Below are positions 4,697 through 36,079 of a DNA stretch of 64,000 bases, piece after piece. Made by a program: the position numbers and the translations under genes. Position 1 is the stretch's first letter, and each line of letters starts with the position of its first letter. This stretch comes from an archaeon (GTDB taxonomy: Archaea; Nanobdellota; Nanobdellia; Woesearchaeales; GW2011-AR15). Below the pieces are notes generated by a model. The model saw only the letters and a program-made list of their open reading frames with translations, was not told the origin of the DNA and did no database searches. The stretch lies in NCBI GenBank assembly GCA_018671515.1, contig JABHHN010000062.1, positions 13,746 to 77,745 on the forward strand, written 5' to 3'.

Positions 4697-6061
4697 TTAA
4701 AACTTAGGCATACCCTTCATGCCACCTGCGCCACCCATCTTTTTCATCATACGTTCCATATTCTTCATGGAACCACCTTTAAACATTTTCATCATTTTCT
4801 TAGACTGTTTATATTGCTTAAGTAAATCTCTTACTTCTTTGATTTCTCTTCCACTTCCTTTATGAATCCTATCAACTCTGTTTCCTGATATGATTGTTGG
4901 GTCTTCAAGTTCTTCTTTAGTCATACTATCCATTACAAATTTCCATGCATCTATTTTTTCCTGCTGGACATCAATTGCTTCTTTTGGCATTTTTATCTGA
5001 CCCATTCCAGGTATTAATTCCATTACTTTTGAGAGCGGTCCCATTTTCTTCATTGCCTGCATCTGATCATATAAATCTATTAAATTAAATTCTCCTTTTA
5101 GAAATCTTTTCCCCATATCTTCTGCATCTTCGTTTGAGATTGCACCTCTTGCCTTTTCAAGTAAGACTTCTAAATCACCCATTCCTAGAATACGAGAGAC
5201 AAAACCTTCTGGATTGAATTCTTCTAAATCATCTATTTTTTCTCCTACTCCTATAAATTTTACTGGTGCATCTGTTACTGAACAAGCAATTAATGCTCCT
5301 CCACCTTTAGCAGTACCATCAAGTTTTGTTATTATGACTCCAGTGACATCACATGACTCATGGAATCCTTGTGCTTGTTTTTCTGCAGCCTGACCAATAT
5401 CACCGCTAAGTGTAAGAAGTGTCTCATCAGGGTTTATTAAAGCATTTATTTTTTTAATTTCAACAACTAATTCATCTGATAATGCATCACGTCCAGCAGT
5501 GTCCACGATTATAAAATCATATTTTTCTAATTCTTCTGCATATTTTTTATATATCTCTTGTGGATCTTTTGATTTTTCATCCCCAAAAACAGGGATATTT
5601 ATTTTATCTCCTAATTGTTTTAATTGTTTAAACGCTGCAGGTCTCCAAGTATCAAGCTGAATCATTGCAACTCTTATTGCTCTTTTCGAAAAATATTTTG
5701 CTAATTTTCCACATGTAGTTGTTTTTCCTGAACCATATAATCCAACAAGCATCAATTTGAACGGTTTTTTATCTATAGAAATCTTTGCTCCTTGCCCACC
5801 TAGGAAATTTACTAATTCTTCATATACAACATTTAAGAGATGCTCTTTTTTTGTAAGTCCTGCAGGTAAATCTTCTTTTAATGTTCTTTCTTTTATTTTA
5901 TTTGTTAGTTCAAATACTAATTTTACATTTACATCTGATGTCAATAATGCTCTTTGTATGTCTTTTATAAGCTCATTTATGAGTTTTTCATCTACAAAGA
6001 TGCTGCTAGTTATCTTATTTAGAGTGTTTTTTAGTGAATCTCCTAGTTTATCAAGTACCAT
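4697..6061 (-). CDS. srp54: Signal recognition particle protein SRP54
   Basis: N domain plus G domain with P-loop GLYGSGKTTTCGKLA and DTAGR. A Met-rich M domain is at the C-terminus (MMKMFKGGSMKNMERMMKKMGG). Confidence 0.9.
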   Translation of the reverse strand: MVLDKLGDSLKNTLNKITSSIFVDEKLINELIKDIQRALLTSDVNVKLVFELTNKIKERTLKEDLPAGLTKKEHLLNVVYEELVNFLGGQGAKISIDKKPFKLMLVGLYGSGKTTTCGKLAKYFSKRAIRVAMIQLDTWRPAAFKQLKQLGDKINIPVFGDEKSKDPQEIYKKYAEELEKYDFIIVDTAGRDALSDELVVEIKKINALINPDETLLTLSGDIGQAAEKQAQGFHESCDVTGVIITKLDGTAKGGGALIACSVTDAPVKFIGVGEKIDDLEEFNPEGFVSRILGMGDLEVLLEKARGAISNEDAEDMGKRFLKGEFNLIDLYDQMQAMKKMGPLSKVMELIPGMGQIKMPKEAIDVQQEKIDAWKFVMDSMTKEELEDPTIISGNRVDRIHKGSGREIKEVRDLLKQYKQSKKMMKMFKGGSMKNMERMMKKMGGAGGMKGMPKF

Positions 6062-6133
6062 TCTAAAAAAGAAGATGATATTATTTTAAAAATCTAGTGG
6101 AAAATCTGAAAAATATGATTAATTATTAATTAA

Positions 6134-7315
6134 TTATGTTTTATAAACAGAAGCTGCGTTTGCAGGTATACAATAATGAGGTGGATCCCATTCTGGCCAT
6201 GGATGAACTATTCCTAATTCCTCTGTGATTTTTATTACTTCAAGAGGCAAATCAATCCAATGAAAAGAATCTAATGATTTAGTAGGATCATTCAAATAAA
6301 GATCTACTGCATATCCTGTTTGATGTTGACTATATCCTGCTTTAGCTGTTGGATAACCTTTTTTTTTATTTTCTATATATAAGTTCCCTTGATCCGAATA
6401 TGATCTATAACCTTGTAAAGCATGTACTGTATAACCTTTCTCTTTTGCTTTTTTAACTAACTCATTTAGAATATGTTCAATATCTGGATGAATTTCTATT
6501 TTATTACTAATACCTTCATTTTCAAATATAGTTTTAGCATTAAGTACTTGATCTTCTCTCCAAGGTGTGTTTATTGGTCCACATCCATAATCCTCAAAAG
6601 TTGAACTTCCTGATGAAATTAGTTGATTTTCATTATTCTCTGCTGCTTCACATTGCTCTGTTGTAAAAACTTCTCCATTGGAATCATCACAATCCTCATT
6701 ATTCAAAGAAAATTTCTGTTGTGCAAAATCTAGCTGTGTTGGTTTATCATCTCCACTACAACACAAATAAATTTCTCCATCTATACCATGACCATCTCCA
6801 TCTGTATCTATATAATATGGACCTTGTGGATTATATCCCGAAAATCCTAAATTCTCACAAAAATCCACTACTTCTGTTTCTGTTTTTGTTGTTGCACTAG
6901 TTATCCAACATTTACCTTCTCCTGTGCTTCCAGTTGGTATTGGTTCAGGTTCTAAAGTTGGTTGTTGTTCTGTTGGTTCTATAGCTACTGGTTCATTAGT
7001 ATTCTCTTTACCTGTAACCCATTGCGTAATTCCACCTACAGTTACTCCTACTGCTGCACATGCTGCAATTACAGGTACCCAAGATATTGCTCCACCAGGA
7101 ACAAATGTAAGTATTCCTGCAATTACTCCTCCTACAACACATCCACCCACTCCTACTCCTATTGTCAAACCACCTATAGCTGAACCAGTAATATCAGCCA
7201 TAGTATTACCTGTAACTTCATTTCTTAGTTTACTATCTTCTGCATATGCAAATATACTATTTAGAATAATCAAGATTCCAAAAATTACAAATATTTTTTG
7301 TTTTGCTTTTTTCAT
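6134..7315 (-). CDS. Membrane-anchored exported protein with C-terminal peptidase M15 (VanY/D-Ala-D-Ala carboxypeptidase-like) domain
   Basis: Signal/anchor MKKAKQKIFVIFGILIILNSIFAYA. A Gly-rich multi-helix hydrophobic segment follows. Conserved Cys module FCENLGFSGYNPQGPYYIDTDGDGHGIDGEIYLCCSGDD. The C-terminus carries zinc-peptidase motifs SQHQTGYAVD ... VHPWPEWDPPHY (H-x6-D ... E-x-W-H pattern of M15). Confidence 0.6.
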   Translation of the reverse strand: MKKAKQKIFVIFGILIILNSIFAYAEDSKLRNEVTGNTMADITGSAIGGLTIGVGVGGCVVGGVIAGILTFVPGGAISWVPVIAACAAVGVTVGGITQWVTGKENTNEPVAIEPTEQQPTLEPEPIPTGSTGEGKCWITSATTKTETEVVDFCENLGFSGYNPQGPYYIDTDGDGHGIDGEIYLCCSGDDKPTQLDFAQQKFSLNNEDCDDSNGEVFTTEQCEAAENNENQLISSGSSTFEDYGCGPINTPWREDQVLNAKTIFENEGISNKIEIHPDIEHILNELVKKAKEKGYTVHALQGYRSYSDQGNLYIENKKKGYPTAKAGYSQHQTGYAVDLYLNDPTKSLDSFHWIDLPLEVIKITEELGIVHPWPEWDPPHYCIPANAASVYKT

Positions 7316-7467
7316 ATTTATTTTTTAATTTTTCATTACTATATAAATAAATTATATTTAGTTTAAAGAGTTTTTTATATATATATATTTTTATTCTAAA
7401 GTGGAAAAACAATATAATTTTAAAAATCTAATAGAAAAAATAAGAAAAGATGTAAGTTTTTATGATT

Positions 7468-8472
7468 CTAAGTATCAGTTTCTACAACTGCTGGCGGTTG
7501 TTGTGGTTCAGGCGTAGGTTCTACAGGAACTGGTTGTTCTGTTGATTTTTCTATTGAAACTACTTTTATCGTTAATCCCTCATTAAAATCCCATTGATTA
7601 CCAATAGTTACCCACTTAAAATTAACACCAACTTGTACCTTACATCCATTGACATCATTAACATCTATCAAAGTAACATCATTCCCATCTATAACTTTTA
7701 ATTCACCAATATTAAAAGATTCCGAATTACCACCAATATCCAATATACATCCTGTGATTTCACCTGCATTTTCTGCTGGTTCTTCTATTTCAGATTCTTC
7801 TTCCACTGGTTCTTCTCTTGCAGGTGAATCGTCTTCATCTTCATCATTAAGAGCAAAATGTTGTTGAGCTGCTTCTAATAAACCTGGTTCTTCCGTAAAT
7901 CCACTTCCACAACAAAAAAATATTTCTCCCCCAGTACCTTTACCATCTTTATCCGAATCTACATAATATGGACCTTTAGGATTATATCCTGGAAAACCTT
8001 CATTTTTACAAAAATCAGGTGTATCTGTTTCTGATATATATATTTCTTTAGCAGGCCAACAGAATTTACTACCAGTACTAGTTCCATCAGGTATTTGTTC
8101 TGGTGCTGCAGTTGGTTGTTCATCAGTACTTCCTGAATCATCTACATCAGTAGAAGTATCTCCTTCTCCACCATTCGATTTACTACTAACCCAACCACCT
8201 ATACCTCCTAGGGCTATCGCTGTAATCCATGTTGCTGGAGCTGCTGCGAGTCCCATTAAAAATACACCTAATCCTGTTGCTGCAACAGGAAGAATTAATG
8301 GCAATCCCACTACAACTAATGCCGTTAAAGCTACCGCAGCAACTACGCCCCCAATAACCCAACCCAAAGGAAACTTTTTTCCCTCACTAGTTTCTTCTGC
8401 ATAAGCCACTATTGAATTTAATATAATCAATATACTAAATATTGCAAATAATTTCAGTTTTGTTTTTTTCAT
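7468..8472 (-). CDS. Membrane-anchored exported protein, paralog of 6134..7315 (lacks the M15 domain)
   Basis: Start taken at the internal MKKTKLKL (8472), since the longer ORF overlaps the upstream giant gene. Same signal peptide, Gly-rich hydrophobic segment and Cys module (FCKNEGFPGYNPKGPYYVDSDKDGKGTGGEIFFCCGSG; AQQHFALNDEDEDDS) as the neighbour. Acidic and Pro-rich C-terminus. Confidence 0.55.
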   Translation of the reverse strand: MKKTKLKLFAIFSILIILNSIVAYAEETSEGKKFPLGWVIGGVVAAVALTALVVVGLPLILPVAATGLGVFLMGLAAAPATWITAIALGGIGGWVSSKSNGGEGDTSTDVDDSGSTDEQPTAAPEQIPDGTSTGSKFCWPAKEIYISETDTPDFCKNEGFPGYNPKGPYYVDSDKDGKGTGGEIFFCCGSGFTEEPGLLEAAQQHFALNDEDEDDSPAREEPVEEESEIEEPAENAGEITGCILDIGGNSESFNIGELKVIDGNDVTLIDVNDVNGCKVQVGVNFKWVTIGNQWDFNEGLTIKVVSIEKSTEQPVPVEPTPEPQQPPAVVETDT

Positions 8473-8498
8473 TCTTATTTTATTTTTTTTAATAATTA

Positions 8499-11400
8499 TT
8501 ATGGTGTATTCAAACAAGCACATACGTCATTATTTTTTTGATTGCAAACACTATCTGATATTGATGTACATACACCTTGTCCAGTACATATTGAACCAAA
8601 CTGTTTTTCACATTTCCTTTTGCAATAACAATCGGCTCCATTATCACCACATATTGTTTCAGTTTTAACATCAATACATAAAGTTTCTTCTTCATTTATA
8701 TCAGGACATGGTTTTGAATTATCACAAGAATATGAACATAAAGGATTAAGCCAAAAATGACCACCTTGCTTTAAGCATTCAAAATTTTCTCCACAAAAAT
8801 CATTACCTAAATTTTTACAATTTTTATCAAAATTAGGATTACTAATCCCATTTTCTACAATATCTTCTGGTGTTCCCCAATTTGTTCCAACACCATAATC
8901 ACAATTCTCTTTAAAATCTTCATACTCTCCTTTTTCTGTACCACATTGCACATAATATCCATTTTCTGGAGTTGAAATTAATGCTTTTCCAAAAGTACAA
9001 CTACCACTACTTATTTTTGATATAGCACACCAATCTGTACTTTCTGCATCTGGATCTGATGATTCAAGAGCATAAAATAAATCAGCTTTACAATAACACA
9101 TATTATCATTTACTTCTTCTACTGCTTCACAGACATTCATATCACATTTAGCATTATAATTTTCTCTATTTATTGTTTCTACTGCTTCCCCAATGTCTGC
9201 TAACTTTTCAACTAAAGCATGCCAAGCATCTTGTAAAACTCCACCAGTACCAGCAGCTGTTGATACATCATATTCATCAATATGTTTTTTTCCTTCATCA
9301 TCATCATCACCAAATGTAATAATTCCGCAATTTGCATCTTTAGCATCTTCAACTTGTGGACATTGACCTAATCCAATACCTCCACAAAAACAATATCCTT
9401 TATCTCCACCTTCTTCGCCACCATCTGGAATTTCGCCACCATCATCTGGAGTTTCTCCACCTTCTGGTTCTTCTTCTGGTGTTTCAGGTTCCTCTTCAGG
9501 ATCATCATCACATTCAATACCACATTTCTCTTCCATCTCATCAGTACATGCAGCTTCAATATTTTCCTCACTGCATATATCTTCATATTCACCATGACAT
9601 GTATCTTCATCATATCCTTCTATAGATGAATATCCCCATTCTGAATCATCATTTTCACAAATTAAGCAAATCCCACCAAACCAAAACAAATTGTTCTCAT
9701 CTATTTCTCCTTCTTCTTCACATACTTCATATTTTCCTTCACAAGTCTCAAATATTATTCCTTCTTCTCCAGGTTCTGTTAAATCAAGGCTTAAATACTT
9801 GAAAATATCATCATCTTCATTTTCAGTTATTGCTCCTTGTATCTGAGTACATCTTTTACATATTCCTTCGCCATAATCTTTTAAATCACCTAATTCATCA
9901 TTATCACATTCTTCATCAACCAATGCAACACAGCCTTCCTCAGTTTCTATTTCTGAATTAAGTAACCATGAATAATCTTCTACTTCTGCTACAGATTTTA
10001 CTTGACATATCCAACAACCATTTGGAAGTGGAGTTTCATCATCATCATCAAAAATAATATTATCAACATTTTGCTTATTGCAAACTTGTTCAGGAAATAT
10101 TTTTTCACAACACACAGAACTTACTCCACAATACATTTCAGGTAATGAAATTCCTTGCTCCAAAATACAAAGATCATCAGACTCCACACCATCTGTATTT
10201 TCCATACAAAACCTATCATCATTGTCTTCTCCTTCAACAACACAATCTTCTGGTATTGTAAGTTGATCGTCATCAGGAGGAACTAATATATTTGGACCAG
10301 GTACACATTTTAATTCTGATTCTTCTGGATTAAAATCTTCAAGCACACCTGCATTACAAAAATGTTTAGGTGGTTCTAATGTTGTTGGATTATTGCAATA
10401 ATACCAATCACCTTCTGATATGCTACACTCAAAGGTTAAACAAGCATCTCCAAACATTGGCTCTACATTACCTTCATTACAATAATAACAAAGACCATAT
10501 TTCCCATTTCCTTCATCAAAATAACTTTCATCAAAATAAGTCATACCTGTTTTAATATCCAAATCTGCTACTATTTCTTCTCTTGTATCTTCATTTACAA
10601 CAGTATATGTACCAATACAATCAGTTATACTTGGTTTTGCTCTACAGCTAATTGTATTTTCAGGTGGAGTTTCTAAAAATTCACCATTACAACAATACAT
10701 GAATTCATTATTAGCAGTAGGAACATAAACATTGTTTTCACCATTTGTATTTTCATCTGACCCTAATTTTAAACAAGTACAATCTTTGTCAGACTCAGAG
10801 ACAATATCTGGGCATGTTTTTGTGCCCAATTGACAGGATCCACCATTAGGACTTAATGTACCAGTCATTGTTCCATCATCATATATTATTTCACTACATT
10901 CCAATAACGCATTTTCAACTATTGTTTTATCCACTTCATCTAATAATATAATTCTTGATCTTAAATCTTCAAAATCACATAATGTAATTTCATTTGGTTC
11001 ATTATAATGTCTATTTGAAAATAATCTTGAAAGGAACAATGTTTTTTGTTCTTCGTCAACTGTACCATCAACTTCTGGAAATTCTTGATTAATTACATCA
11101 ATAAAAGTTCCAAGACATAATTCTTCACCAATAATTTCTGAATCTTCATCTATAATTGCTGAATCTTCATCTATAATTTCAGAATTTAGACAATCTCTTA
11201 GATATTCAATTCTTCCCTCTAATGTTGTTGAACATTCATCAATTCCAACAATTCCTTTTCCTGCAATCCTCAATACAAAATTGGTCCACAATGTTGTATC
11301 ATAAATTCCATTTCTTGGATAATTTACTGAATTAACATATATTTTGTTTTCACCAGAAAGTACTTCACTGCTCCCATCACCCAATCTTAATGGTCCTGTA

Positions 11401-13628
11401 ATTCCAAATGTTTCAGGATTTAATCTAATATATGAAATATCAGAAGATGTTGCTCCTACTTGTAAATTCTCTTCAGATGTATCAGTTTCAAAAAAAGCAT
11501 ATCTTTCTCCTGCCACATCTTCTTTTGAATAATAAGTATCATCGGGTAAAAATTCATCATTATCAATTACTACTGTTTCGACATATTTTTGATTATCATG
11601 TATAAAATAATTGTTTTCTCCAAAATCCCCACCAGGTAAAAATTCAAATGGATTTGAACTATATAATGCACTCAATATAATAGCTCTAGAATTGATTCTA
11701 AAATCATCCAACCAAATTATTCTTTCATCATCACCTTCATTGATAATCATAGGTTCATCAGCTGGTTTAAGTGAACAAGCATTACCAAATGTTAAAAGTT
11801 CAAAACTCAATTCACCTTCAAAACTTACAGAATCAATCTGATTTGGTTGATAAAATTTATCAAGACCTGATATTTTTTCTTTATTTGCATCAATATATCC
11901 ATAAGTCATAGGAGTTGCATAAAATGGTGCATTGATTCCATTATTAGGATATCCTAAAGACTCTCCAAAATAGTAAGGATATTCAATTGAAACTCCTCTT
12001 TTATTTTGTAAGTTATTATAATTTAATATAGGTGTAGCTGAAAGAATTGTAGAACCAATATGTAAATCACAAGTATTTGCATTATTACAAACACATTGTG
12101 CTCTATCATTAATTCCATCTCCACTAATATATTTTTCAACAAAAGAAATAAATTTTTCTTCATCAGTTTCTCCATTTAATGCAATATTAATATCTTCACT
12201 TGTAAAATATTCAAATAAATCTCTTTTTGCCATTTCAGAACAAGTATCATAACATAATTCATCATCTACATTTCCTGATGTTAAACCACAACCTTCGACT
12301 GCTTTTATTCGTTGACTGGGTAAATCTTCTGCACTTTTTACAGGAATCCAATCATCCTGATCCCAATCATTTAGCAACAATCCTTTATTTTCACAAAGAT
12401 GATCTCTAAAATCATTATTTTTCTCATAATTTGAAGGAATTGGATATTTTTCAATACTATATATAATATCATCATCAAATGTACAAGTCGCTTCACCCAT
12501 ATATTCTGGATATAAATGAAGACCGTTTCTTGTTGTTGGCAATTGAATATGTGTACACTTCTCTTTTTTATCCAATGCTTTATTTTCATTCCATTCTTTA
12601 AATTCAACAATACTACAATATTCTATAAGTCCATCTAAATTCTCAACCCATCTATTCCTATCACTTGGCTCAATTAGATTTATGAATTTATTAAGAACTG
12701 GTAAATTGTAATATCCTGTTTCTTGTGAACCACAATCTACAACAGCTACTTCTGTAAAATGATCTACTAATGCAACTACTTGATAATATGTATTTCCATC
12801 ATATGTAACTTTTTCTACTTTCTGTGTTTCATATGTTCTCCAAAGTCCTGTTCTTCTATCCCACCACCCTAATTTTAGTTCTTCTGGTGGATAACCTTTT
12901 GGTATTTTTTCTTCCAAAACATCTACAGTAAATTTAATTGGTGGATCAAAGATTGCACCATCAGGTGTTCCTTCATATACTACTGAACCAATTACAACTT
13001 TATTATCAAGACCATCAAAATTATTATCTAAAACTGAAATTGCAACTTTATCAATTGACGCACCACCATAATCTTTAACTGTAGTATCTTCACTAAAAAA
13101 TAATGTTGACCTACCATCACTTGATTTTAAGAATGTATTTTTTTTTATAAGACCATTTTCAGTCCTTATCTCAATTGAAACTGGAATCCTAAATTGAAAT
13201 TCATTTAGTTCTAAAATCTCTTCACTTTTACTAAGTTTTATTGGATAACTAATTTTTACAAATATAGAATCAGGAGAAATTTCTACATCTGCGTCAACAT
13301 CTCCCTCTTCAACCTTATACCCTGAATCTTTAAACAATCCATACTCTCCCGTACATTCTTTTAAATTATTTTCAATCCATGCTTCATAAATATTTTCAGT
13401 ATTATAAAGACCATATAATTCCTTTGCAAAAAGTGTATTTTGCTTAAGGCATTCTGTCACATAGAAATTAAGACTATCTTTAGCAAATGGAAATTGTCTG
13501 ACATCATCTGAATCCCTTTGAAGACCTGATTTTAAAAAAATGTCTTTAAAATAAAATGACATAATTACTGATATAACAATTATTAATCCAATTATTACAA
13601 ACTTTGTTACTTGAGATTTCTTTTTCAA
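8499..13628 (-). CDS. Giant (1709 aa) cysteine-rich extracellular surface protein, N-terminally membrane-anchored
   Basis: Single uninterrupted ORF. N-terminal anchor KFVIIGLIIVISVIMSFYF. More than 100 Cys in the C-terminal two thirds, as clustered CxxC/CC motifs. Acidic linker DDDPEEEPETPEEEPEGGETPDDGGEIPDGGEEGG. Internal 27-bp tandem repeat encoding IIDEDSAIIDEDSEII. Confidence 0.6.
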   Translation of the reverse strand: MKKKSQVTKFVIIGLIIVISVIMSFYFKDIFLKSGLQRDSDDVRQFPFAKDSLNFYVTECLKQNTLFAKELYGLYNTENIYEAWIENNLKECTGEYGLFKDSGYKVEEGDVDADVEISPDSIFVKISYPIKLSKSEEILELNEFQFRIPVSIEIRTENGLIKKNTFLKSSDGRSTLFFSEDTTVKDYGGASIDKVAISVLDNNFDGLDNKVVIGSVVYEGTPDGAIFDPPIKFTVDVLEEKIPKGYPPEELKLGWWDRRTGLWRTYETQKVEKVTYDGNTYYQVVALVDHFTEVAVVDCGSQETGYYNLPVLNKFINLIEPSDRNRWVENLDGLIEYCSIVEFKEWNENKALDKKEKCTHIQLPTTRNGLHLYPEYMGEATCTFDDDIIYSIEKYPIPSNYEKNNDFRDHLCENKGLLLNDWDQDDWIPVKSAEDLPSQRIKAVEGCGLTSGNVDDELCYDTCSEMAKRDLFEYFTSEDINIALNGETDEEKFISFVEKYISGDGINDRAQCVCNNANTCDLHIGSTILSATPILNYNNLQNKRGVSIEYPYYFGESLGYPNNGINAPFYATPMTYGYIDANKEKISGLDKFYQPNQIDSVSFEGELSFELLTFGNACSLKPADEPMIINEGDDERIIWLDDFRINSRAIILSALYSSNPFEFLPGGDFGENNYFIHDNQKYVETVVIDNDEFLPDDTYYSKEDVAGERYAFFETDTSEENLQVGATSSDISYIRLNPETFGITGPLRLGDGSSEVLSGENKIYVNSVNYPRNGIYDTTLWTNFVLRIAGKGIVGIDECSTTLEGRIEYLRDCLNSEIIDEDSAIIDEDSEIIGEELCLGTFIDVINQEFPEVDGTVDEEQKTLFLSRLFSNRHYNEPNEITLCDFEDLRSRIILLDEVDKTIVENALLECSEIIYDDGTMTGTLSPNGGSCQLGTKTCPDIVSESDKDCTCLKLGSDENTNGENNVYVPTANNEFMYCCNGEFLETPPENTISCRAKPSITDCIGTYTVVNEDTREEIVADLDIKTGMTYFDESYFDEGNGKYGLCYYCNEGNVEPMFGDACLTFECSISEGDWYYCNNPTTLEPPKHFCNAGVLEDFNPEESELKCVPGPNILVPPDDDQLTIPEDCVVEGEDNDDRFCMENTDGVESDDLCILEQGISLPEMYCGVSSVCCEKIFPEQVCNKQNVDNIIFDDDDETPLPNGCWICQVKSVAEVEDYSWLLNSEIETEEGCVALVDEECDNDELGDLKDYGEGICKRCTQIQGAITENEDDDIFKYLSLDLTEPGEEGIIFETCEGKYEVCEEEGEIDENNLFWFGGICLICENDDSEWGYSSIEGYDEDTCHGEYEDICSEENIEAACTDEMEEKCGIECDDDPEEEPETPEEEPEGGETPDDGGEIPDGGEEGGDKGYCFCGGIGLGQCPQVEDAKDANCGIITFGDDDDEGKKHIDEYDVSTAAGTGGVLQDAWHALVEKLADIGEAVETINRENYNAKCDMNVCEAVEEVNDNMCYCKADLFYALESSDPDAESTDWCAISKISSGSCTFGKALISTPENGYYVQCGTEKGEYEDFKENCDYGVGTNWGTPEDIVENGISNPNFDKNCKNLGNDFCGENFECLKQGGHFWLNPLCSYSCDNSKPCPDINEEETLCIDVKTETICGDNGADCYCKRKCEKQFGSICTGQGVCTSISDSVCNQKNNDVCACLNTP

Positions 13629-13730: not shown

Positions 13731-14381
13731 ATGAATAAATTTATGCTTAAAAAAATAATTTTTATCATTTCAATGATGTTAATAATTTCTGCGTGTGAAA
13801 CTGTGGCACCACAAAATGAAATAAATGAAACAGAAGAAATACAAGATGAAGAATTTAAATTAGTACTTCCAAATAAATTACGGCAATGGGCAATATCCGC
13901 AACTGCTAGTTCTGCATATGGAAGCATTCATGCTGATGGAGATTGGACACCAAGTTCTTTGATTGGTGAACCAGATGTAATAAAATGTGAAGATGATCCT
14001 AAAGCTTGGGTATCTGCACAAGAAGATGATGATCTTCAATGGATTGAACTTATATACGACAAAAATGTTTATGTGACTGATATAAGAATAAGAGAAACAC
14101 TTGGTCCAGGAGCAGTTGTAATGATTGAGGCAAAATCTGATGATGGATATAAAACAATATTTGAAGGTACTGATAATAATGAAGAATGTCTTGATTTTTT
14201 TGAATTTACTTATAATGATGGTGAATTAAATAAAACTGATTTCATGACAGACACAATAAAAATTACACTTGATACAAATGTTGCAGATTGGAATGAAATT
14301 GATGCAGTTGAACTAATTGGATATCAAAGAAATTGGCACATTGAACCAGATGGTAATTTTACAAAAGTTGTGCTTGAATAG
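13731..14381 (+). CDS. Hypothetical secreted lipoprotein (possible beta-sandwich carbohydrate-binding-like domain)
   Basis: Signal peptide with lipobox-like ISAC. Acidic extracellular domain. The W...IHADGDW...QWIELIYDKNVYVTDIRI pattern is weakly discoidin/galactose-binding-like. Confidence 0.45.
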   Translation: MNKFMLKKIIFIISMMLIISACETVAPQNEINETEEIQDEEFKLVLPNKLRQWAISATASSAYGSIHADGDWTPSSLIGEPDVIKCEDDPKAWVSAQEDDDLQWIELIYDKNVYVTDIRIRETLGPGAVVMIEAKSDDGYKTIFEGTDNNEECLDFFEFTYNDGELNKTDFMTDTIKITLDTNVADWNEIDAVELIGYQRNWHIEPDGNFTKVVLE

Positions 14382-14670: not shown

Positions 14671-16656
14671 ATGAAAAAAATTATATCAATATTTATATTC
14701 TTAATTTTAATAATAAATGTATATGCTGAAGTTGACAAAGATATTTTTTATTTTGATGAAATAGATCTTGATATAGAATTAAAATCAAGTGTTTTTTTAG
14801 TTCCTAAATCAGATGATCATGAAACAGAATATGTTTCAATAAATCTTAAATTCCTTCCAACTACAGATTCCAGACAAAATGTTATTTCAATAGAAACAAA
14901 TCCTAAAGCAGACATAGATGAAAATGTAAATTTCTGGATTGATAATCCAGATATTGGTGAAATAGAATATTCTTTGACTTCAAATATTAAAACTCACAAT
15001 AGATTCAATAGAATAAAAAAACATGTTGATTTTCCTATAAAAAATCTTGACTCTAATCTACAAGAATATATTATGCCAACTAATAAAATTGATATTAATA
15101 AAAATATAATTAATCTTGCATCAACTTTAGCTGAAGGTGAAAATAATCTTTTCAAAGTTGTATTTAATATTGCTGATTGGACACAAGAAAATATAGAATA
15201 TAGTCTAGACACACTTACTGCAGAAGCATCTCAAAAATCAAGCTGGGTATTAGAAAATAGATATGGTGTATGTGATGAAATTACAAATTTATTTATTGCT
15301 CTTTCAAGATCTCTTGGAATTCCAGCAAGATTTATTTCTGGAATTTCATATACAAATTCAGAACAATTTGCAAACCCATGGGGATTACATGGATGGGCTG
15401 AAGTGTATTTTCCAGATGTAGGATGGGTACCATTTGATGTAACATATGGACAACTAGGTTATATTGATGCAGGACATATAAAATTAAAGGAATCTTTAGA
15501 TTCAGATAAGACAAGTACTAAATTTGAATGGCGTGGAAACAATGTTGATTTAACAACAGAAAGCCTTGAAGTTGATGTAACAATAAATGGAAAAGGAAAA
15601 AAAATAATTTCTCCAATAGATATCAATGTAATATCAAATTCTCCGAGTGTAGATTTTGGTTCATATAATTTAATAATTGCAGATATAACAAATATAAGAG
15701 ATTATTATGTAACAACTGAATTACATTTAAGCACATCAAAAGAAATTGAATTAATTGATTCAAATAAAAAACATGTATATCTAAAACCTAAAGAAAAAAA
15801 AAGATTTTTCTGGATAATCAAAATTCCAGATAGCCTTAAAAAAGACTTCATATATACATTTCCAATTGGTATTACTTCTTCATTTGATGAATCATATAGT
15901 ACATCATTTGAAGCAAAAAGAAATGAAGTTAAATATTCATTAGCTGATGTAGAATCAATTGTTTCTTTAGAAAAAGAAGCAGATAAAAAAGTATATTCCC
16001 GAAATATTGAACTTATGTGTCTAAATATCAATGATGCAATAACAGGTAAAAAAATAATCATTGAATGTGATTTAAAAAATCTAGGAAATGTTGTCTTACA
16101 TGACTTAAAAATATGTCTTGAAAATGATTGTGAGGAAAGAGATTTACATATATCTGAGAGTAAAAAAATTGAATTTACTAAAATATATGATGAAACAGGA
16201 GAAAAAGCAGTCACCATAACTGCAAAAAACACAGGTGTTACTGCATCATCATTTTTTAAGATTTTTGTAGTTGATGAACCAGTAATTGATATCATTGATA
16301 TGGTTTATCCTGAAAGTATAAAATATAAGGAAAAATTTGATGTTGAATTTACATTAATTCCTATGTCACTTACTGAACCAAAAAATGTAATATTGACTTT
16401 TACATTCAATGATGAATCTCAGCAATGGAAATTTGATAGTTTAGAAACAAAAAAACCAGTAAAAATTGAAATTGATAGTGCACTTCTAAAAGAAGGAGAA
16501 ACTGAATTTAAAATATATACTACTTACACAGATGGAGTAGATAAAAAATTCAATAAAGATGATAGTTTTACAATCTCAATGGATGATCTAACAGGATTGC
16601 AAAAGATTGAGAAATTCTTTGTTGATTTATTTAGAAAAATTAGGAATTTATTCTGA
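14671..16656 (+). CDS. Secreted transglutaminase-like cysteine protease superfamily protein
   Basis: Signal peptide MKKIISIFIFLILIINVYA. Transglutaminase core triad context YGVCDEITNLF ... HGWAEVYFPDVGWVPFDVT (Cys-His-Asp). Beta-rich flanking domains. Confidence 0.6.
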   Translation: MKKIISIFIFLILIINVYAEVDKDIFYFDEIDLDIELKSSVFLVPKSDDHETEYVSINLKFLPTTDSRQNVISIETNPKADIDENVNFWIDNPDIGEIEYSLTSNIKTHNRFNRIKKHVDFPIKNLDSNLQEYIMPTNKIDINKNIINLASTLAEGENNLFKVVFNIADWTQENIEYSLDTLTAEASQKSSWVLENRYGVCDEITNLFIALSRSLGIPARFISGISYTNSEQFANPWGLHGWAEVYFPDVGWVPFDVTYGQLGYIDAGHIKLKESLDSDKTSTKFEWRGNNVDLTTESLEVDVTINGKGKKIISPIDINVISNSPSVDFGSYNLIIADITNIRDYYVTTELHLSTSKEIELIDSNKKHVYLKPKEKKRFFWIIKIPDSLKKDFIYTFPIGITSSFDESYSTSFEAKRNEVKYSLADVESIVSLEKEADKKVYSRNIELMCLNINDAITGKKIIIECDLKNLGNVVLHDLKICLENDCEERDLHISESKKIEFTKIYDETGEKAVTITAKNTGVTASSFFKIFVVDEPVIDIIDMVYPESIKYKEKFDVEFTLIPMSLTEPKNVILTFTFNDESQQWKFDSLETKKPVKIEIDSALLKEGETEFKIYTTYTDGVDKKFNKDDSFTISMDDLTGLQKIEKFFVDLFRKIRNLF

Positions 16657-16712: not shown

Positions 16713-16829
16713 GCGCCGGTGGTCTAATGGCTATGATTTTGGCCTTCCACACGTTAAAATCGAAGATTCACTGGATCTTCAACTACGTGAAGATAGCCGA
16801 CGATCTGGGTTCAAATCCCGGCCGGCGCA
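16713..16829 (+). tRNA. tRNA-Gly (anticodon UCC) with a 45-nt intron at the canonical 37/38 position
   Basis: Acceptor stem GCGCCGG/CCGGCGC, discriminator A. T-arm CTGGG-TTCAAAT-CCCGG. D-loop with GG. Anticodon stem TTGGC/GCCGA with loop CUUCCA|A. Exon 1 is 16713..16749, intron 16750..16794, exon 2 16795..16829. Mature length 72 nt. The intron 5' CACG can pair with CGTG near its 3' end (BHB-like). No encoded CCA. Confidence 0.75.
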
Positions 16830-16928: not shown

Positions 16929-17591
16929 ATGGAGAAAAAAACAAATAATAAATCAATTATGTGTATATGTGCACATAATGATGACCAAGTAATTGGAGCT
17001 GGTGGAGCTCTTGCTAAGTATGCAAAAGAAGGATATAAAATAATTACAATAATTATGAGTTTTGGAGAACTAGGAATTGTACATTTTAAAGAAGAAGAAG
17101 CAAGAAAAATAAGAGTAAAAGAATCAAGAAGAGCAGATAAAATCCTAGGTTTTGAAAGAACTCATTATCTTGGATTAACAGAAGGAAAATTTGCAGAAGA
17201 AATAAAAATAAAAAATATCAAAGAAAAAATAATAAATATCATAAAAAAAGAAAAACCAATAAAAATATTCACACATGCAACTGATGATCCACATCCTGAT
17301 CATAGAGATGTAAATAAATTTGTTCTTGATATTGCTAATCAAATTGATTATAAAGGAGAAATATATAGTTATAATATATGGAATTTTTTTATAAATTTTA
17401 AAAATAGATATAATCCTAAAATGGTTGTCGACATAACCGACACATTCAAATTAAAAGCAAGTGCTTTTGATGCACATAAAAGTCAATGGCATGCAAGATG
17501 GTCACTAACCTGGAATGTATATTTTCAAGCTATTTATTACGGATTAAAATATAAAAAAAAATATGCCGAAGTTTTTTATAAATTAAGATGA
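16929..17591 (+). CDS. PIG-L/LmbE family N-acetylglucosaminyl deacetylase
   Basis: The CAHNDDQVIGAGG (AHPDDE-like) and DDPHPDHRD motifs are diagnostic of the PIG-L/LmbE zinc deacetylases. Confidence 0.7.
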   Translation: MEKKTNNKSIMCICAHNDDQVIGAGGALAKYAKEGYKIITIIMSFGELGIVHFKEEEARKIRVKESRRADKILGFERTHYLGLTEGKFAEEIKIKNIKEKIINIIKKEKPIKIFTHATDDPHPDHRDVNKFVLDIANQIDYKGEIYSYNIWNFFINFKNRYNPKMVVDITDTFKLKASAFDAHKSQWHARWSLTWNVYFQAIYYGLKYKKKYAEVFYKLR

Positions 17592-18733
17592 AAGAAAAAG
17601 ATAAGAAAAAAAGAAAAAAATTATTAATTGTAAGTGATGCATTTCTTCCTAGATGGGATGGTATCGCTAGATTCCTATACGAAATTATTCCAAGACTTAG
17701 TAAAACATATGATATAACAATATTGACTACTGATAATGGTAAAATTCAAGAAGATCTTGGTGTAAAAATAGTCCAGATAAGTAAACTAAATTTAAGACTT
17801 GGAGATTTTTATCCAAGCAAAATTGATTTTGTAACAGCAACAAAATTAGTATCTAAATCAGATGTAGTTTTTGTCCAATCATTAGGTCCTATTGGTGGTG
17901 CTGCAATTCTTGTTGCTAATAAATTAAGAAAACCAATATTGTTCTATTCTCATGTTATTGATTGGAAATTATATCCTAAAAGTATAAATTCAAAAATATT
18001 AAAACCAATTCTAAATACAATTGTTAAAATATATGCCAAATATATGTTCAATAGATGTAATCTTCTTTTAGTTCCTTCTGTTGAAACAATGGAACTTTTT
18101 TCTTTCATGAAAATAACTGCTAAAAAACAAGTTGTTCATCTGGGAGTTGACATAATAAATTTTTCACCACCAAGAGATAAAAGAAAAGCTAAAGAAGATA
18201 TAGGGATAAACCCTGATCATTTAGTCATTGGTTCAGTAGGTAGATTCGGACATGAAAAAGATCTTCCTACTCTCCAAAGAGCATTTTTAAGATTAAGATC
18301 AAAAAAAAAAGACGTAACATTATTAATTGTTGGAGATGGACGGGAAGACATCAAAAAATTATTTGTTAATAAAAAACAAATACTATATGTTGGACAAAAA
18401 AAAGATCCTTCAAAATATTACAAAGCAATGGATATATATGTCCTTCCAAGCCTTGAAGAAACTACATCCCTTACAACACTTGAAGCAATGTCTTGTAAAG
18501 TTGCACCAATAACTACTCAAGTAGGTTTTATAAAAGAATATTTGAAAGATGGAAAAAATGGTCTATTCTTTCCAAAAAGAGATTCATATAGATTGTATAT
18601 TAAAATAAGAAATCTAATAACAAGTCCAAGTCAAAGAATGCACCTGGCAGAAAACGCTAGAAGCACAGTTATAAATAAATTTTCATGGGAAATAACAACT
18701 AAAAAAATTCAAAAAGCCATTGAATCACTCTAG
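17588..18733 (+). CDS. Glycosyltransferase family 4 (GT-B, group 1)
   Basis: C-terminal E-x7-E motif (EETTSLTTLEAMSCKVAPI). GT-B architecture. Start overlaps the upstream stop (ATGA), indicating translational coupling. Confidence 0.7.
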   Translation: MKEKDKKKRKKLLIVSDAFLPRWDGIARFLYEIIPRLSKTYDITILTTDNGKIQEDLGVKIVQISKLNLRLGDFYPSKIDFVTATKLVSKSDVVFVQSLGPIGGAAILVANKLRKPILFYSHVIDWKLYPKSINSKILKPILNTIVKIYAKYMFNRCNLLLVPSVETMELFSFMKITAKKQVVHLGVDIINFSPPRDKRKAKEDIGINPDHLVIGSVGRFGHEKDLPTLQRAFLRLRSKKKDVTLLIVGDGREDIKKLFVNKKQILYVGQKKDPSKYYKAMDIYVLPSLEETTSLTTLEAMSCKVAPITTQVGFIKEYLKDGKNGLFFPKRDSYRLYIKIRNLITSPSQRMHLAENARSTVINKFSWEITTKKIQKAIESL

Positions 18734-20511: not shown

Positions 20512-21108
20512 TTATGCAATTGCATCTCTTTTTGCACAAACAGGACTAAAATCAAATTTATCATTTTCAGGATTTATAAAACATTGAGAAAATTTAAAAA
20601 AATTTTCATTTTCTATCGCTTCACCATCTTTTGTATTAAGATCAAAAGAAGAGTAACATGAAAAACCAGGCCCATAAGTTTCTTTACAATCAATATATTT
20701 AATACCTGGAACTCTTAATTCTTCTGATACCGTTGTATCTTCAATAGGAATTTTATCTCTATTTTTTATTGCATTAGAGTTTGTTATACAATAACCATTT
20801 TCAGATTCTCCATAATATGTTAAGCCTGGTTTAACTTCACTTTCTCTTGATTCAAATTTACATTGAAATTCTTTTACTGTATTATCCCCTATTAGTCTTC
20901 CATTTATCCCAAATAAAAATCCTGAGATACATTCTTCTCCTTCTTGATCACAAGAATCTATACCATTTGTCATATCTACACCATCTACTATTGTAGGCTC
21001 TTGAGGTTCTTCTGCAGTTGGTTCTTCTGTAGCTGGCGCACACGATGAGACAAGCATTATTATACTAACTATTAGTATTGGTATTAAATATTTATTTTTA
21101 GATTTCAT
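20512..21108 (-). CDS. Hypothetical secreted Cys-rich lipoprotein
   Basis: Signal peptide plus lipobox-like VSSCAPA. An acidic Pro/Glu linker (EEPTAEEPQEPT) is followed by a Cys-rich domain (10 Cys). Confidence 0.45.
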   Translation of the reverse strand: MKSKNKYLIPILIVSIIMLVSSCAPATEEPTAEEPQEPTIVDGVDMTNGIDSCDQEGEECISGFLFGINGRLIGDNTVKEFQCKFESRESEVKPGLTYYGESENGYCITNSNAIKNRDKIPIEDTTVSEELRVPGIKYIDCKETYGPGFSCYSSFDLNTKDGEAIENENFFKFSQCFINPENDKFDFSPVCAKRDAIA

Positions 21109-28081: not shown

Positions 28082-28672
28082 TTGGAAATATTTATATTAC
28101 CCAATGTAATAAATAATCAAATGAAAAAGAAAAATATTCTATTTATAATAACTCTAGCAACAATGATTTTTTTATTTAGTGCATGTACTGAATCAACACC
28201 AAAAGAAACTGCTTGTACAATGGATGCAATGATCTGTCCTGATGGAACATCTGTTGGACGTGTTGGTCCAGATTGTGAATTTGAAAAATGTCCTGACTTA
28301 CCCGTTGATGATGGAACTTTAGTAAAAGGATGTACAGAAGAAGCAAAAATATGTCCTGATGGATCTGCAGTTGGAAGGATTCCTCCTAATTGTGAATTTG
28401 CACCTTGTGATCCAAGATATATTGGTCCACCAGAAACAAATAATAAAAATGAAGGAGAAATAGAAGAAAAACACTATTGTCCTGATAGCAGTAGAGGTGC
28501 AGAAATCTGTACATTCGATTACACACCTGTATGTGGATGGTTCAATGAAGATATTCAATGTGTAAAATTTCCCTGTGCTCAAACATATGGAAATTCATGT
28601 GGTGCATGTTCTAATGAAGATGTTGAATATTATACCGAAGGTGAATGCCCAACTGATATGATTGAGGAATAA
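28082..28672 (+). CDS. Secreted Cys-rich lipoprotein with internal repeats and a C-terminal Kazal-like domain
   Basis: Probable start at MKKKN (28121). Lipobox LFSAC. Two repeats ICPDG(T/S)xVGR..P.CEF..C. C-terminus CTFDYTPVCG...TYGNSCGACSNEDVEYYTEGEC matches the Kazal pattern (PVCG, TYxNxC, xAC, C). Confidence 0.5.
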   Translation: MEIFILPNVINNQMKKKNILFIITLATMIFLFSACTESTPKETACTMDAMICPDGTSVGRVGPDCEFEKCPDLPVDDGTLVKGCTEEAKICPDGSAVGRIPPNCEFAPCDPRYIGPPETNNKNEGEIEEKHYCPDSSRGAEICTFDYTPVCGWFNEDIQCVKFPCAQTYGNSCGACSNEDVEYYTEGECPTDMIEE

Positions 28673-34135: not shown

Positions 34136-36079
34136 GTGCAAAAAAACATGGGTAAAAATTCAAAACATAAAGTGAAGACTATGCCAAAAAGAAAAGTGCA
34201 TAGCAGCAATAGTTCTCATCCTAAAAAACATGAGACAAAACACAAAGTTAAACATACAGAAACACCAAAGTACGAAACAAAACACGTTTCAAAAAATAAT
34301 AATACAGGTCTATGGATCGCAGTATTTCTGCTTTCAATTCTTGTTGTAACAGCAGTTGCAACAGATGGATTCAAAACTCTTTTTGATAAAAAAGATACAC
34401 CTGCAACGAGTACAGGTGGAGAATATGGAACAGCAAAATTAGAATTCTATGTTATGAGTCAGTGCCCTTACGGTACACAAGTAGAAGATGCTATTGGTCC
34501 AGTTCTTGATAAATTAGGAGATGCTGTTGATTTCGAATTAAATTTTATATCAACTGATCTTGGAGATGGAACTTTTAAAAGTCTCCACGGAGAACCTGAA
34601 ACTAAAGGAAATATAGCTCAACTTTGTGCAATAAAATATAATCCTGAAAAATATATGGATATGATACTTTGCATGAATAAAGATGCAAGAGCAATACCTG
34701 ATAATTGGGAATCATGTGCAAATAGCAATGATCTTGATGTAGCTAATATTAAAACCTGTTATGAAGGACAAGAAGGAATTGATTTACTAAAAACAAATGT
34801 TCCAAAGGCAGTTGAAGCTAATGCAAGAGGTTCACCAACTATATTTCTAAATGGAAACCCATATAATAGTGGACGAGACACAACTGCATTTCTAAAAGCA
34901 ATTTGTGCTCAACTAGATGGACATCCTGAATGTATTAATCTTCCTAAATGTTCAGCAGATACAGATTGTATTGCAGAAGCTGATAAAAATGGAGTATGTG
35001 AAAATCCAGGAGAAAAAGATGCTAAATGTACTTATACAGATCCAGTTGCAGTTGCAGTTAAATTTTTAGTAGATGATAATTGCGTCGCGTGTCAGCCTGA
35101 ACAAGTAAACGATGTCACTAAAAATTTCTTTAAAGGTGCAGATTTTAATGAAGTAAAATTTGAATCAAATGAAGGGCAAGCTATGATGGAAAAATATAAT
35201 ATTGTTTATCTTCCAGCATATGTTTTTGAATCAGAAATTGAAAACACACTTATGTGGAAAACACAGCCAGGACTTGCTAATTCATTTATTAAAAATGATG
35301 ATGGCTCATATAGACTTAATCCTGAAGCAGTAGGTTCAACATGGGATCCTTATCAGGAAGTCTGTGATAATGAAATAGATGACAATGATGATGGTAAGAC
35401 TGATTGTGAAGATGAAAAATGTGGTGGAACAATGGCTTGTATGGAAAAATTAGAAGTGCCTAAAGTTGAAATGTTTGTCATGAGTCACTGTCCTTTTGGA
35501 ACACAATTTGAAAAAGGAGCTGTACCAGCACTAAAATTATTAGGGGATAAAATTGATTATGATATGAATTTTGTTTATTATGCAATGCATGGTAAAATAG
35601 AACTTGATGAACAATTAATCCAACACTGTATCCAGCAAGAACAAAAAGATATATATCTTGATTATCTTGAATGTTTCTTAATTGATGGAAATACAGATAG
35701 ATGTCTAAGTGTTGTAGATATTGAAAAATCAGATATTCAAAGTTGCATCGATAGTACAGATGAAGAATTTAAAATAACTGAACAATTCAATGACAAATCA
35801 ACCTGGTTATCAGGAAACTACCCATTATTTGATGTATCAAAAGACTTGAATACAAAATATAACGTAGGTGGTTCACCTAGCTGGGTAGTCAATGGAGTAA
35901 ATATAGATAGCGTTGGACGAGATCCTGCAAGTATATTAAAAGCAATCTGTTATGGGTTTGATGAAAAGCCTGCAGAATGTGATGAAGTATTACCTGCTGT
36001 TACCTATGGTTCTGGTTTTGGTCCATCTGATGAAAATGTACCTGCTGCTCCTGCAAGTACAAGTGGAAGCTGCGGATAA
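34136..36079 (+). CDS. Membrane-anchored extracellular protein with two tandem thioredoxin-like (CP[YF]G) domains
   Basis: Basic His/Lys-rich cytoplasmic N-terminus, one TM (LWIAVFLLSILVVTAVA), then two ~290-aa repeats beginning LEFYVMSQCPYGTQ and VEMFVMSHCPFGTQ. Many additional Cys. The Trx-fold assignment is a motif-level inference. Confidence 0.45.
   Translation: MQKNMGKNSKHKVKTMPKRKVHSSNSSHPKKHETKHKVKHTETPKYETKHVSKNNNTGLWIAVFLLSILVVTAVATDGFKTLFDKKDTPATSTGGEYGTAKLEFYVMSQCPYGTQVEDAIGPVLDKLGDAVDFELNFISTDLGDGTFKSLHGEPETKGNIAQLCAIKYNPEKYMDMILCMNKDARAIPDNWESCANSNDLDVANIKTCYEGQEGIDLLKTNVPKAVEANARGSPTIFLNGNPYNSGRDTTAFLKAICAQLDGHPECINLPKCSADTDCIAEADKNGVCENPGEKDAKCTYTDPVAVAVKFLVDDNCVACQPEQVNDVTKNFFKGADFNEVKFESNEGQAMMEKYNIVYLPAYVFESEIENTLMWKTQPGLANSFIKNDDGSYRLNPEAVGSTWDPYQEVCDNEIDDNDDGKTDCEDEKCGGTMACMEKLEVPKVEMFVMSHCPFGTQFEKGAVPALKLLGDKIDYDMNFVYYAMHGKIELDEQLIQHCIQQEQKDIYLDYLECFLIDGNTDRCLSVVDIEKSDIQSCIDSTDEEFKITEQFNDKSTWLSGNYPLFDVSKDLNTKYNVGGSPSWVVNGVNIDSVGRDPASILKAICYGFDEKPAECDEVLPAVTYGSGFGPSDENVPAAPASTSGSCG

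Follow-up and report, generated by a model that had tools for sequence, protein, structure and literature searches.

Three consecutive minus-strand genes in a 64,000-nucleotide stretch of the archaeal contig JABHHN010000062.1 (the window, meaning the whole of the DNA analysed) encode a giant Cys-rich protein and, after it, two tandem paralogs, one of which ends in a zinc peptidase domain of the M15 clan. On balance, we think that the locus is probably a surface cassette specific to one lineage of Woesearchaeales-like DPANN archaea, and that its M15 member would cleave the stems of bacterial peptidoglycan at contact range. Secreted peptidoglycan hydrolases, M15 types included, are already known in Woesearchaeales (PMC12352652; PMC9723730). 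What is new here is the architecture, with a membrane tether, a four-member Cys module and no known wall-binding domain; the endolysin-type DxxH site; and the conserved association with a giant orphan and a paralog that is not an enzyme. An earlier reading of this DNA from its letters alone (the sequence-only reading) had placed the three open reading frames (ORFs) correctly, at 8499-13628, 7468-8523 and 6134-7315, and had described their products as exported or membrane-anchored, which the features given below support.

The Peptidase Domain

The M15 protein consists of a signal peptide, a hydrophobic segment, a Pro/Glu linker, the Cys module and the peptidase domain, in that order. Its features are as follows.

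6134-7315, minus strand: paralog 1, the M15 protein, 393 amino acids
7244-7315, minus strand: signal peptide, with the cleavage site between AYA and ED
7013-7198, minus strand: Gly-rich hydrophobic segment, residues 40-101, with six GxxxG
6638-6943, minus strand: Cys module, residues 125-226
6137-6616, minus strand: LAS/M15 zinc peptidase domain, residues 234-393
6176-6406, minus strand: catalytic and metal residues, with R304 at 6404-6406, S329/H331 at 6323-6331 and D338 at 6302-6304
6176-6187, minus strand: C-terminal pair of these residues, D377 at 6185-6187 and H380 at 6176-6178

The best Pfam model for this protein is VanY (PF02557), which scores 49.8 bits (cut-off 25, E 3.7e-13) and aligns residues 273-375 with positions 2-112 of its 132. 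The VanY-like domain proposed in the sequence-only reading is therefore significant by profile, and the SQHQTGYAVD and VHPWPEW motifs are indeed restricted to this member of the pair. The NCBIfam equivalog models for VanXY, LdcB and VanY all score about 29 bits (29.7 for vanXY against a cut-off of 250 and 29.4 for LdcB against 275), where the cut-offs run from 250 to 425. By these scores, the M15 protein is a member of the family and not an ortholog of any characterised enzyme. Relatives in the PDB, at E values of 2e-6 to 1e-4, are the Bacillus anthracis DD-carboxypeptidase family (4mph/4jid), Ply500 (2vo9, 4e-6), YodJ, LdcB (4ox5/4d0y) and LysB4 (6akv). The sole matches in a phage collection are M15 endolysins of SPO1-like Bacillus phages and a Roseobacter microvirus (31-34% identity, E 1e-4).

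The residues expected of the active site align throughout. R304, S305, Q309, S329, H331, G334, A336, D338, W353, W373, D377 and H380 are invariant between the M15 protein, SPO1 gp19.3 and the microvirus enzyme. The stretch from S329 through H331 to D338 has the SxHxxGxAxD form of the first zinc-ligand motif of the M15 clan and aligns with 4jid, 4mph, 2vo9, 4ox3, 4d0y and the phage enzymes. The conserved Arg, which in this clan binds the carboxylate or oxyanion of the substrate, is R304, whose surroundings (QGYRSY) align with GFRSY/GYRS of the PDB and phage homologs. The last motif, of the (E/D)xxH type, is D377-P-P-H380, which both orthologs keep unchanged and which aligns with phage YDAPH/YDPAH. 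R304, H331, D338, D377 and H380 correspond to LdcB R120, H153, D160, E204 and H207. In LdcB, whose substrate recognition has been detailed, the carboxylate is bound by R120 and zinc by H153, D160 and H207, with E204 as an acid close by (PMC4087270).

The M15 protein thus resembles VanY and LdcB (PF02557; 4ox5, 4jid, 4mph) in its Arg, first His, Asp and last His, but its acid three positions ahead of the last His is D377, an Asp in place of the invariant Glu204 of LdcB. The combination of SxHxxGxAxD, the Arg of G(Y/F)RS and a C-terminal W...DxxH with Asp is that of the phage L-Ala-D-Glu M15 endolysins (SPO1 gp19.3, Ply500, LysB4). It differs from these endolysins in its identity of only 31-34% to them, in having no holin partner or phage context, in an unrelated N-terminal architecture and in belonging to a host with no murein to lyse from within. 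From these alignments, the active site appears complete, and of the endolysin (DxxH) rather than the VanY/LdcB flavour. Since the acid of the last motif is Asp and the scores fall far under the equivalog cut-offs, specificity for D-Ala-D-Ala is not secure and carboxypeptidase action cannot be assumed. Of the zinc D-Ala-D-Ala carboxypeptidase named in the sequence-only reading, the M15-clan domain and its aligned catalytic and metal residues stand, but the specificity does not.

Two sites near the active site vary. The Glu of PEW is not conserved, being Ser in the ortholog P0002. At codon 330 (window 6329-6331), the window and P0002 read SQHQTG, and the ENA copy P0001/L001, which is almost identical, has SEHQTG, as is canonical for VanY/LdcB. 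This single-residue Q/E polymorphism adjoins the zinc-ligand His.

The Paralogs and Their Probable Membrane Tether

The other member of the pair runs from a signal peptide (cleaved between AYA and EE) through a hydrophobic segment, an acidic linker and the Cys module to a C-terminal domain and a Pro/Glu-rich tail. Its true start is likely the ATG at 8472 (MKKTKLK), which matches public gene calls.

7468-8472, minus strand: paralog 2, 334 amino acids from the ATG at 8472 (the longest ORF, 7468-8523, has 351)
8173-8376, minus strand: Gly/Ala-rich hydrophobic segment of about 68 amino acids
7789-8097, minus strand: Cys module
7543-7767, minus strand: small two-Cys beta-type C-terminal domain
6078-6113, minus strand: 36-nucleotide element directly 3' of the M15 gene, with an 81% identical copy 3' of paralog 2 (7412-7447)

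That the two are tandem paralogs, as had been proposed, is clear at both levels. The proteins are 42% identical over 220 amino acids (E 3e-42), and they share the signal peptide (…NSI(F/V)AYA, then E after the site), the Gly/Ala-rich hydrophobic stretch, the acidic Pro-rich linker and the Cys module of about 100 amino acids. In the DNA, duplicate blocks D1 and D2, which cover the module as well as the signal peptide with 27 nucleotides of 5' leader, are 73-76% identical, and block D9 is the 36-nucleotide element listed above, so that the 5' and 3' flanks are included. This element belongs to the tandem duplication unit and may serve as a shared 3' signal.

The hydrophobic stretch is about 55-70 amino acids in the paralogs, long enough for a two-helix hairpin. 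In the M15 protein, Gly, Ala, Ser and Thr make up 50% of the segment. Neither segment matches a glycine-zipper or other family in Pfam. The orthologous pair, P0005 and P0002, is without a Gly-rich segment and has a lipobox-like …SSC signal instead. The tether therefore appears to be exchangeable, and what is conserved is the module and the C-terminal domains. The C-terminal domain of paralog 2 (75 amino acids) has no Pfam or PDB match and is 54% identical to that of P0005, with both Cys kept.

The Cys Module

The motif FCxNxGFxGYNPxGPYYxDxDxDGxGxxGEI(F/Y)xCC picked out in the sequence-only reading is common to both paralogs. In an exhaustive HMMER profile search of 1.84 billion representatives, the full module was found in only four proteins, namely the two window paralogs and the tandem pair P0005 (243 amino acids) and P0002 (317 amino acids, with VanY). 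All four proteins share four Cys of the module, and three of them also have C209 and C222, which are both lost in paralog 2. The ectodomains have even numbers of Cys, eight in the M15 protein and six in paralog 2. The joint loss and the even counts would fit extracellular disulfides.

The module has more distant relatives. Another 27 proteins match its profile (E 1e-15 to 5e-4), at profile positions of about 38-96 only and in several stretches per protein. PF11617 (Cu-binding_MopE) is found at 50-272 bits in five of the nine relatives scanned with Pfam, and all five are Bacteroidota-type proteins secreted by the type IX secretion system (T9SS), with a Por_Secre_tail and many such repeats. The Bacteroidota repeat unit YYVDADGDGYGSTTTAMLC…GYSTNNTDCDDxN aligns column by column with YYIDTDGDGHGIDGEIYLCC…FSLNNEDCDDSN of the module, so that the core of the module, YYxDxDxDGxG...C...DCDDxN, has profile similarity to the YYxDxDGDGxG...DCDD unit. 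Across these alignments D46, D48, D50, C61 and D84 never vary, and conservation is at least 90% at Y44, G51, G53, N81, C85 and D87. PF11617 itself matches none of the three module sequences tried, even at E ≤ 10. The module differs from the PF11617 arrays in being single-copy, in a CW...C segment at its N-terminus, in its CC doublet and in a helical insertion (LxFAQQxF). An AlphaFold2 (AF2) model of the module with the repeat rows was moderate, with a predicted local distance difference test (pLDDT) score of 63, and it has no structural neighbour in the PDB.

Going by the profile alignments, the module is a lineage-specific elaboration of a known, functionally uncharacterised secreted repeat. 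The description of it as previously unnoted is therefore right for the full module, with its four proteins, and wrong for the core, which is a divergent single copy of a PF11617-bearing repeat. Nor is it a domain already known for a function inside the cell.

The Giant Protein

8499-13628, minus strand: giant orphan surface protein, 1709 amino acids, TTG start
13530-13628, minus strand: its N-terminus, a Lys-rich n-region and one hydrophobic helix (signal anchor), hydropathy segment 4-33
12741-13628, minus strand: anchor and N-terminal domain of about 300 amino acids, common to a 772-amino acid Woesearchaeal protein (L007)
8502-10931, minus strand: acidic Cys-rich C-terminal half, residues 900-1709, with 66 Cys (8%)
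9402-9509, minus strand: PE-rich acidic linker, residues 1374-1409, by composition

The giant was described in the sequence-only reading as having more than 100 Cys in CxxC/CC clusters, but counting gives 84 (4.9%), most of them in the C-terminal half, with four CxxC and two CC. The PE-rich linker is there as described, and the protein as a whole is strongly acidic, with 354 Asp and Glu against 124 Lys and Arg. The ORF does not arise from misassembly: four independent contigs, the longest of 132 kb, carry it unbroken in assemblies from JGI, ENA and Logan, and a tblastn match in L002 is contiguous and colinear over the 1709 amino acids.

A word-indexed homolog search of 5.8 billion clusters returned no homolog of the giant but itself. 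It has no Pfam, NCBIfam or PDB match, whole or in pieces, including the Cys-rich C-terminal half alone, and these same searches found no adhesive or repeat domain (Ig, cadherin, LamG, PKD, beta-helix and others); internal repeats were looked for and none were found. The claim that it is typical of DPANN adhesins is therefore without support from homologs, Pfam or the PDB. An adhesin remains a plausible guess for a protein that is huge, anchored, acidic and probably disulfide-rich.

The one clear relationship is at the N-terminus. Residues 1-296 are 26% identical over 302 amino acids (E 6e-23) to the start of the 772-amino acid protein of L007 (10772-13090, minus strand), which matches the anchor of the giant residue for residue and ends in a Peptidase_C39_2 papain-like domain (Pfam, 60.5 bits). 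Just two more matches to the N-terminal domain, both marginal, turned up across 1.27 Mb of Woesearchaeal DNA. The shared anchor and domain suggest a lineage-specific anchor-stalk that bears varied C-terminal cargo.

This relationship also bears on the gene start. Public gene calls begin the giant at an ATG 22 codons downstream (1687 amino acids; region 13562-13628), and with that start the signal anchor is lost. The alignment to the L007 protein begins within the Lys-rich hydrophobic anchor, and a TATA-like TTTATATA box lies at 13662-13655, 27 nucleotides upstream of the TTG. Both favour the TTG start as the probable one, and the mRNA is possibly leaderless. The giant stop and the start of paralog 2 are separated by 26 nucleotides, so those two are likely co-transcribed. 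The M15 gene is preceded by a 152-nucleotide AT-rich spacer with its own TATA-like box of the same sequence about 25 nucleotides upstream of the ATG. The boxes were identified by eye; a sigma-70 promoter scan is not applicable to archaea.

Host, Setting and Distribution

4697-6061, minus strand: SRP54, the next gene after the M15 gene
13731-14381, plus strand: 216-amino acid lipobox protein, divergent, upstream of the giant
14671-16656, plus strand: secreted transglutaminase-core protein (Pfam, 89.8 bits)

The window carries archaeal marks, namely Nre, thermosome, archaeal-type SRP54 neighbours and an intron-bearing tRNA, and has a GC content of about 28%. The top matches of its SRP54 among 185,579 species representatives are metagenome-assembled genomes of Woesearchaeota and Nanoarchaeota, at up to 74% identity. 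These point to a DPANN archaeon without a close sequenced species representative, in keeping with the archaeal, DPANN-like host supposed in the sequence-only reading.

The cassette is known from one other population. A sister contig of 5.6 kb from the same JGI sample (JGI 3300072015) carries a cut ORF of 658 amino acids, the 243-amino acid ORF, the 317-amino acid VanY protein and SRP54, so that the order giant-like ORF, paralog 2, M15 gene and SRP54 is kept with similar spacing. The second cassette stands at the same chromosomal place, its proteins are 60% identical to those of the window and its ORFs are intact, which argues for vertical descent under selection. Beyond this, the word-indexed search with the M15 protein returned itself and one ortholog only, and an alignment-based scan of GTDB genomes found no relative. 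A metagenome scan, for which the patterns were poor and N-terminal, returned only the window's own sequence.

In 80 Woesearchaeal SRP54 neighbourhoods (1.27 Mb), there is no homolog of the M15 protein, the module, the 216-amino acid protein or the transglutaminase. On its other side, the block in the window is flanked by a PIG-L/glycosyltransferase pair (16929-18733). In four relatives, this pair lies 0.8-7 kb from SRP54 with unrelated content between. The roughly 10.8-kb block therefore fills a variable slot with content specific to this lineage. A tRNA gene of 117 nucleotides (16713-16829, plus strand) lies at the edge of the block, between the transglutaminase gene and PIG-L; it scores 46.5 bits in Rfam, ARAGORN does not detect it, and its length points to an archaeal intron.

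Proposed Substrate and Role of the Locus

In the reading that we prefer, the giant would be a disulfide-rich acidic protein held in the membrane by its N-terminal signal anchor. Both paralogs would be exported via their cleavable signal peptides and tethered again by the Gly/Ala-rich hydrophobic hairpin, or by a lipid anchor at the lipobox in the sister lineage, with their ectodomains facing outside. The acidic Pro/Glu stalk would display the disulfide-bonded module, whose core is one copy of the DxDxDG-type 'putative metal-binding' repeat and might bind Ca or another metal. After the module, one paralog has the small beta domain as its end and the other the LAS/M15 zinc peptidase of phage-endolysin DxxH flavour. 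The peptidase would cut the peptide stems of bacterial peptidoglycan by L-Ala-D-Glu endopeptidase or LD/DD-carboxypeptidase activity, on the wall of a bacterial host or prey or on released muropeptides, and the module and giant would provide reach or adhesion. Since the organism is a DPANN archaeon, a bacterial wall is the most economical substrate. To that extent, the action on a host or competitor wall suggested in the sequence-only reading holds up, but the idea had already been published.

The nearest known systems are the archaeal hydrolases surveyed by Strock et al., 2025, who found modular peptidoglycan hydrolases in about 5% of archaeal genomes, most prominently in Nanoarchaeota, and showed that two haloarchaeal ones kill bacteria (PMC12352652). 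Their supplementary table includes Sec-secreted LysM+Peptidase_M15 and LysM+SLT proteins in Woesearchaeales and PG_binding_1+VanY in Nitrososphaerales. Woesearchaeal murein transglycosylases have also been interpreted as predatory (Vigneron 2022; PMC9723730). The M15 protein is like the surveyed hydrolases in being an exported M15-clan enzyme of a murein-less archaeon, in the same clade (Nanoarchaeota/Woesearchaeales) and with the same patchy, lineage-restricted spread. It is unlike them in being membrane-tethered rather than freely secreted and in having a lineage-restricted Cys module, a non-enzymatic paralog and a giant orphan as partners. It also has a catalytic domain and no Pfam wall-binding domain (searched at E ≤ 0.1 for the whole protein and E ≤ 10 for the module), so the definition used in that survey would miss it.

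Several points weigh against cleavage of peptidoglycan at contact range. A membrane-tethered enzyme would reach the wall only in tight cell–cell contact, and Gram-negative peptidoglycan would sit shielded behind the outer membrane. The AF2 model of the full M15 protein, made from a shallow alignment, has a mean pLDDT of 37.6, and the tie of the giant to the paralogs consists of adjacency and common strand alone. Two more points speak as well for other roles. The first is that Pfam and NCBIfam find no LysM, PG_binding_1, SH3 or other peptidoglycan-binding domain in the three proteins. This would suit nutrient scavenging, in which a tethered peptidase trims free muropeptides or D-amino-acid peptides to feed an auxotrophic archaeon with a small genome, with no specific host wall involved. 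The membrane tether would retain the products near the cell, carboxypeptidase-type relatives (LdcB and the 4jid family) are the top PDB matches, and the window encodes transporters of the major facilitator superfamily and other hydrolases. We nevertheless regard scavenging as unlikely, in that the DxxH motif and the similarity to phage endolysins indicate endopeptidases of intact walls, the pairing with a giant surface protein and a binding-type paralog resembles a contact apparatus, and the patchy spread resembles that of weapon-like peptidoglycan hydrolases (PMC12352652). The second is the identity of only about 30% between the M15 domain and any characterised enzyme, which leaves its specificity open and so admits a substrate other than murein. 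This might be the organism's own surface proteins, with the M15 protein, encoded downstream of the giant orphan, maturing the giant; or the pseudomurein or S-layer of an archaeal host, Woesearchaeota being often proposed as partners of methanogens; or there might be no hydrolysis at all, the domain serving as a metal-dependent binding domain of the Hedgehog type. These possibilities taken together seem rather improbable to us. All catalytic residues, beyond the metal ligands, are kept in the two orthologs and the phage enzymes. Pseudomurein stems consist of L-amino acids only and are cut by C71 cysteine peptidases. M15-clan enzymes, to our knowledge, are with few exceptions specific for peptidoglycan stem peptides with D-amino acids.

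We also considered whether the M15 gene is the remnant of a virus or mobile element, a former endolysin inserted by the tRNA gene and without a present cellular role. The intron-bearing tRNA does stand at one edge of the variable block, the block is missing between PIG-L/glycosyltransferase and SRP54 in relatives, the nearest annotated relatives in the phage collection are endolysins, and the Gly/Ala-rich segment superficially resembles a signal-arrest-release (SAR) anchor. Yet integrase, capsid, terminase and all other viral genes are missing from the block, as is any att-like direct repeat matching the tRNA, and therefore we do not read it as a mobile element. The viral-contig scan gave no relative, the cassette is intact at the same place in the second population, and a murein endolysin would be useless to archaeal viruses. 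A remnant is thus very improbable.

Peptidoglycan cleavage by a surface cassette could be taken a step further, to an apparatus with which an episymbiotic or predatory Woesearchaeon would breach walls on contact. The giant would be adhesin or spacer to the tethered pair, the Cys module would bind Ca and replace the usual peptidoglycan-binding domains, and a SAR-like or glycine-zipper anchor would be releasable, deploying the peptidase onto the bacterial partner. We offer this only tentatively and consider it doubtful. If it were true, it would be direct molecular evidence of bacterial, not archaeal, hosts for some Woesearchaeota, and a new targeting domain of wall hydrolases would be established.

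On the more conservative reading of a contact-range peptidoglycan peptidase, the locus would extend a recently published picture without overturning current views. Surface enzymes specific for murein are among the few sequence-level clues that Woesearchaeota engage bacteria. Surveys demanding a known wall-binding domain would undercount archaeal peptidoglycan hydrolases. The module and M15 domain together (about 270 amino acids) make a small, expressible candidate for archaeal antibacterial activity, and the giant orphan and the four-member module again illustrate how large a share of DPANN surface proteins lacks detectable relatives.

Other Genes in the Window

The transglutaminase-like neighbour, which the sequence-only reading had joined to the cell-surface theme, has the core domain as proposed, but the linkage is thematic and not functional, since the gene lies on the other strand with a further gene in between and the protein is of a common secreted archaeal type. 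A precomputed PF25900 (PAPPA) label on the 216-amino acid lipoprotein was not reproduced by Pfam hmmscan, even at E ≤ 10.

A 905-amino acid membrane protein of the UPF0182 family (37287-40004, minus strand; 888 bits) belongs to an uncharacterised group known mostly from Actinobacteria and some archaea. Lipobox-like small exported proteins are encoded at 28082-28672 (plus strand), 20512-21108 (minus strand) and 13731-14381 (plus strand), with the signals …FSAC, …VSSC and …ISAC. Cys is very abundant in two of the three (8.7% and 4.5%), and Pfam matches none of them. From its predicted proteins, the organism seems to use lipid-anchored and disulfide-rich surface proteins widely. A 647-amino acid protein (34136-36079, plus strand) with 3.9% Cys has a gamma-interferon-inducible thiol reductase (GILT) domain at 61.5 bits. 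GILT is unusual in archaea, and a thiol-disulfide oxidoreductase of this type would fit the many Cys-rich exported proteins.

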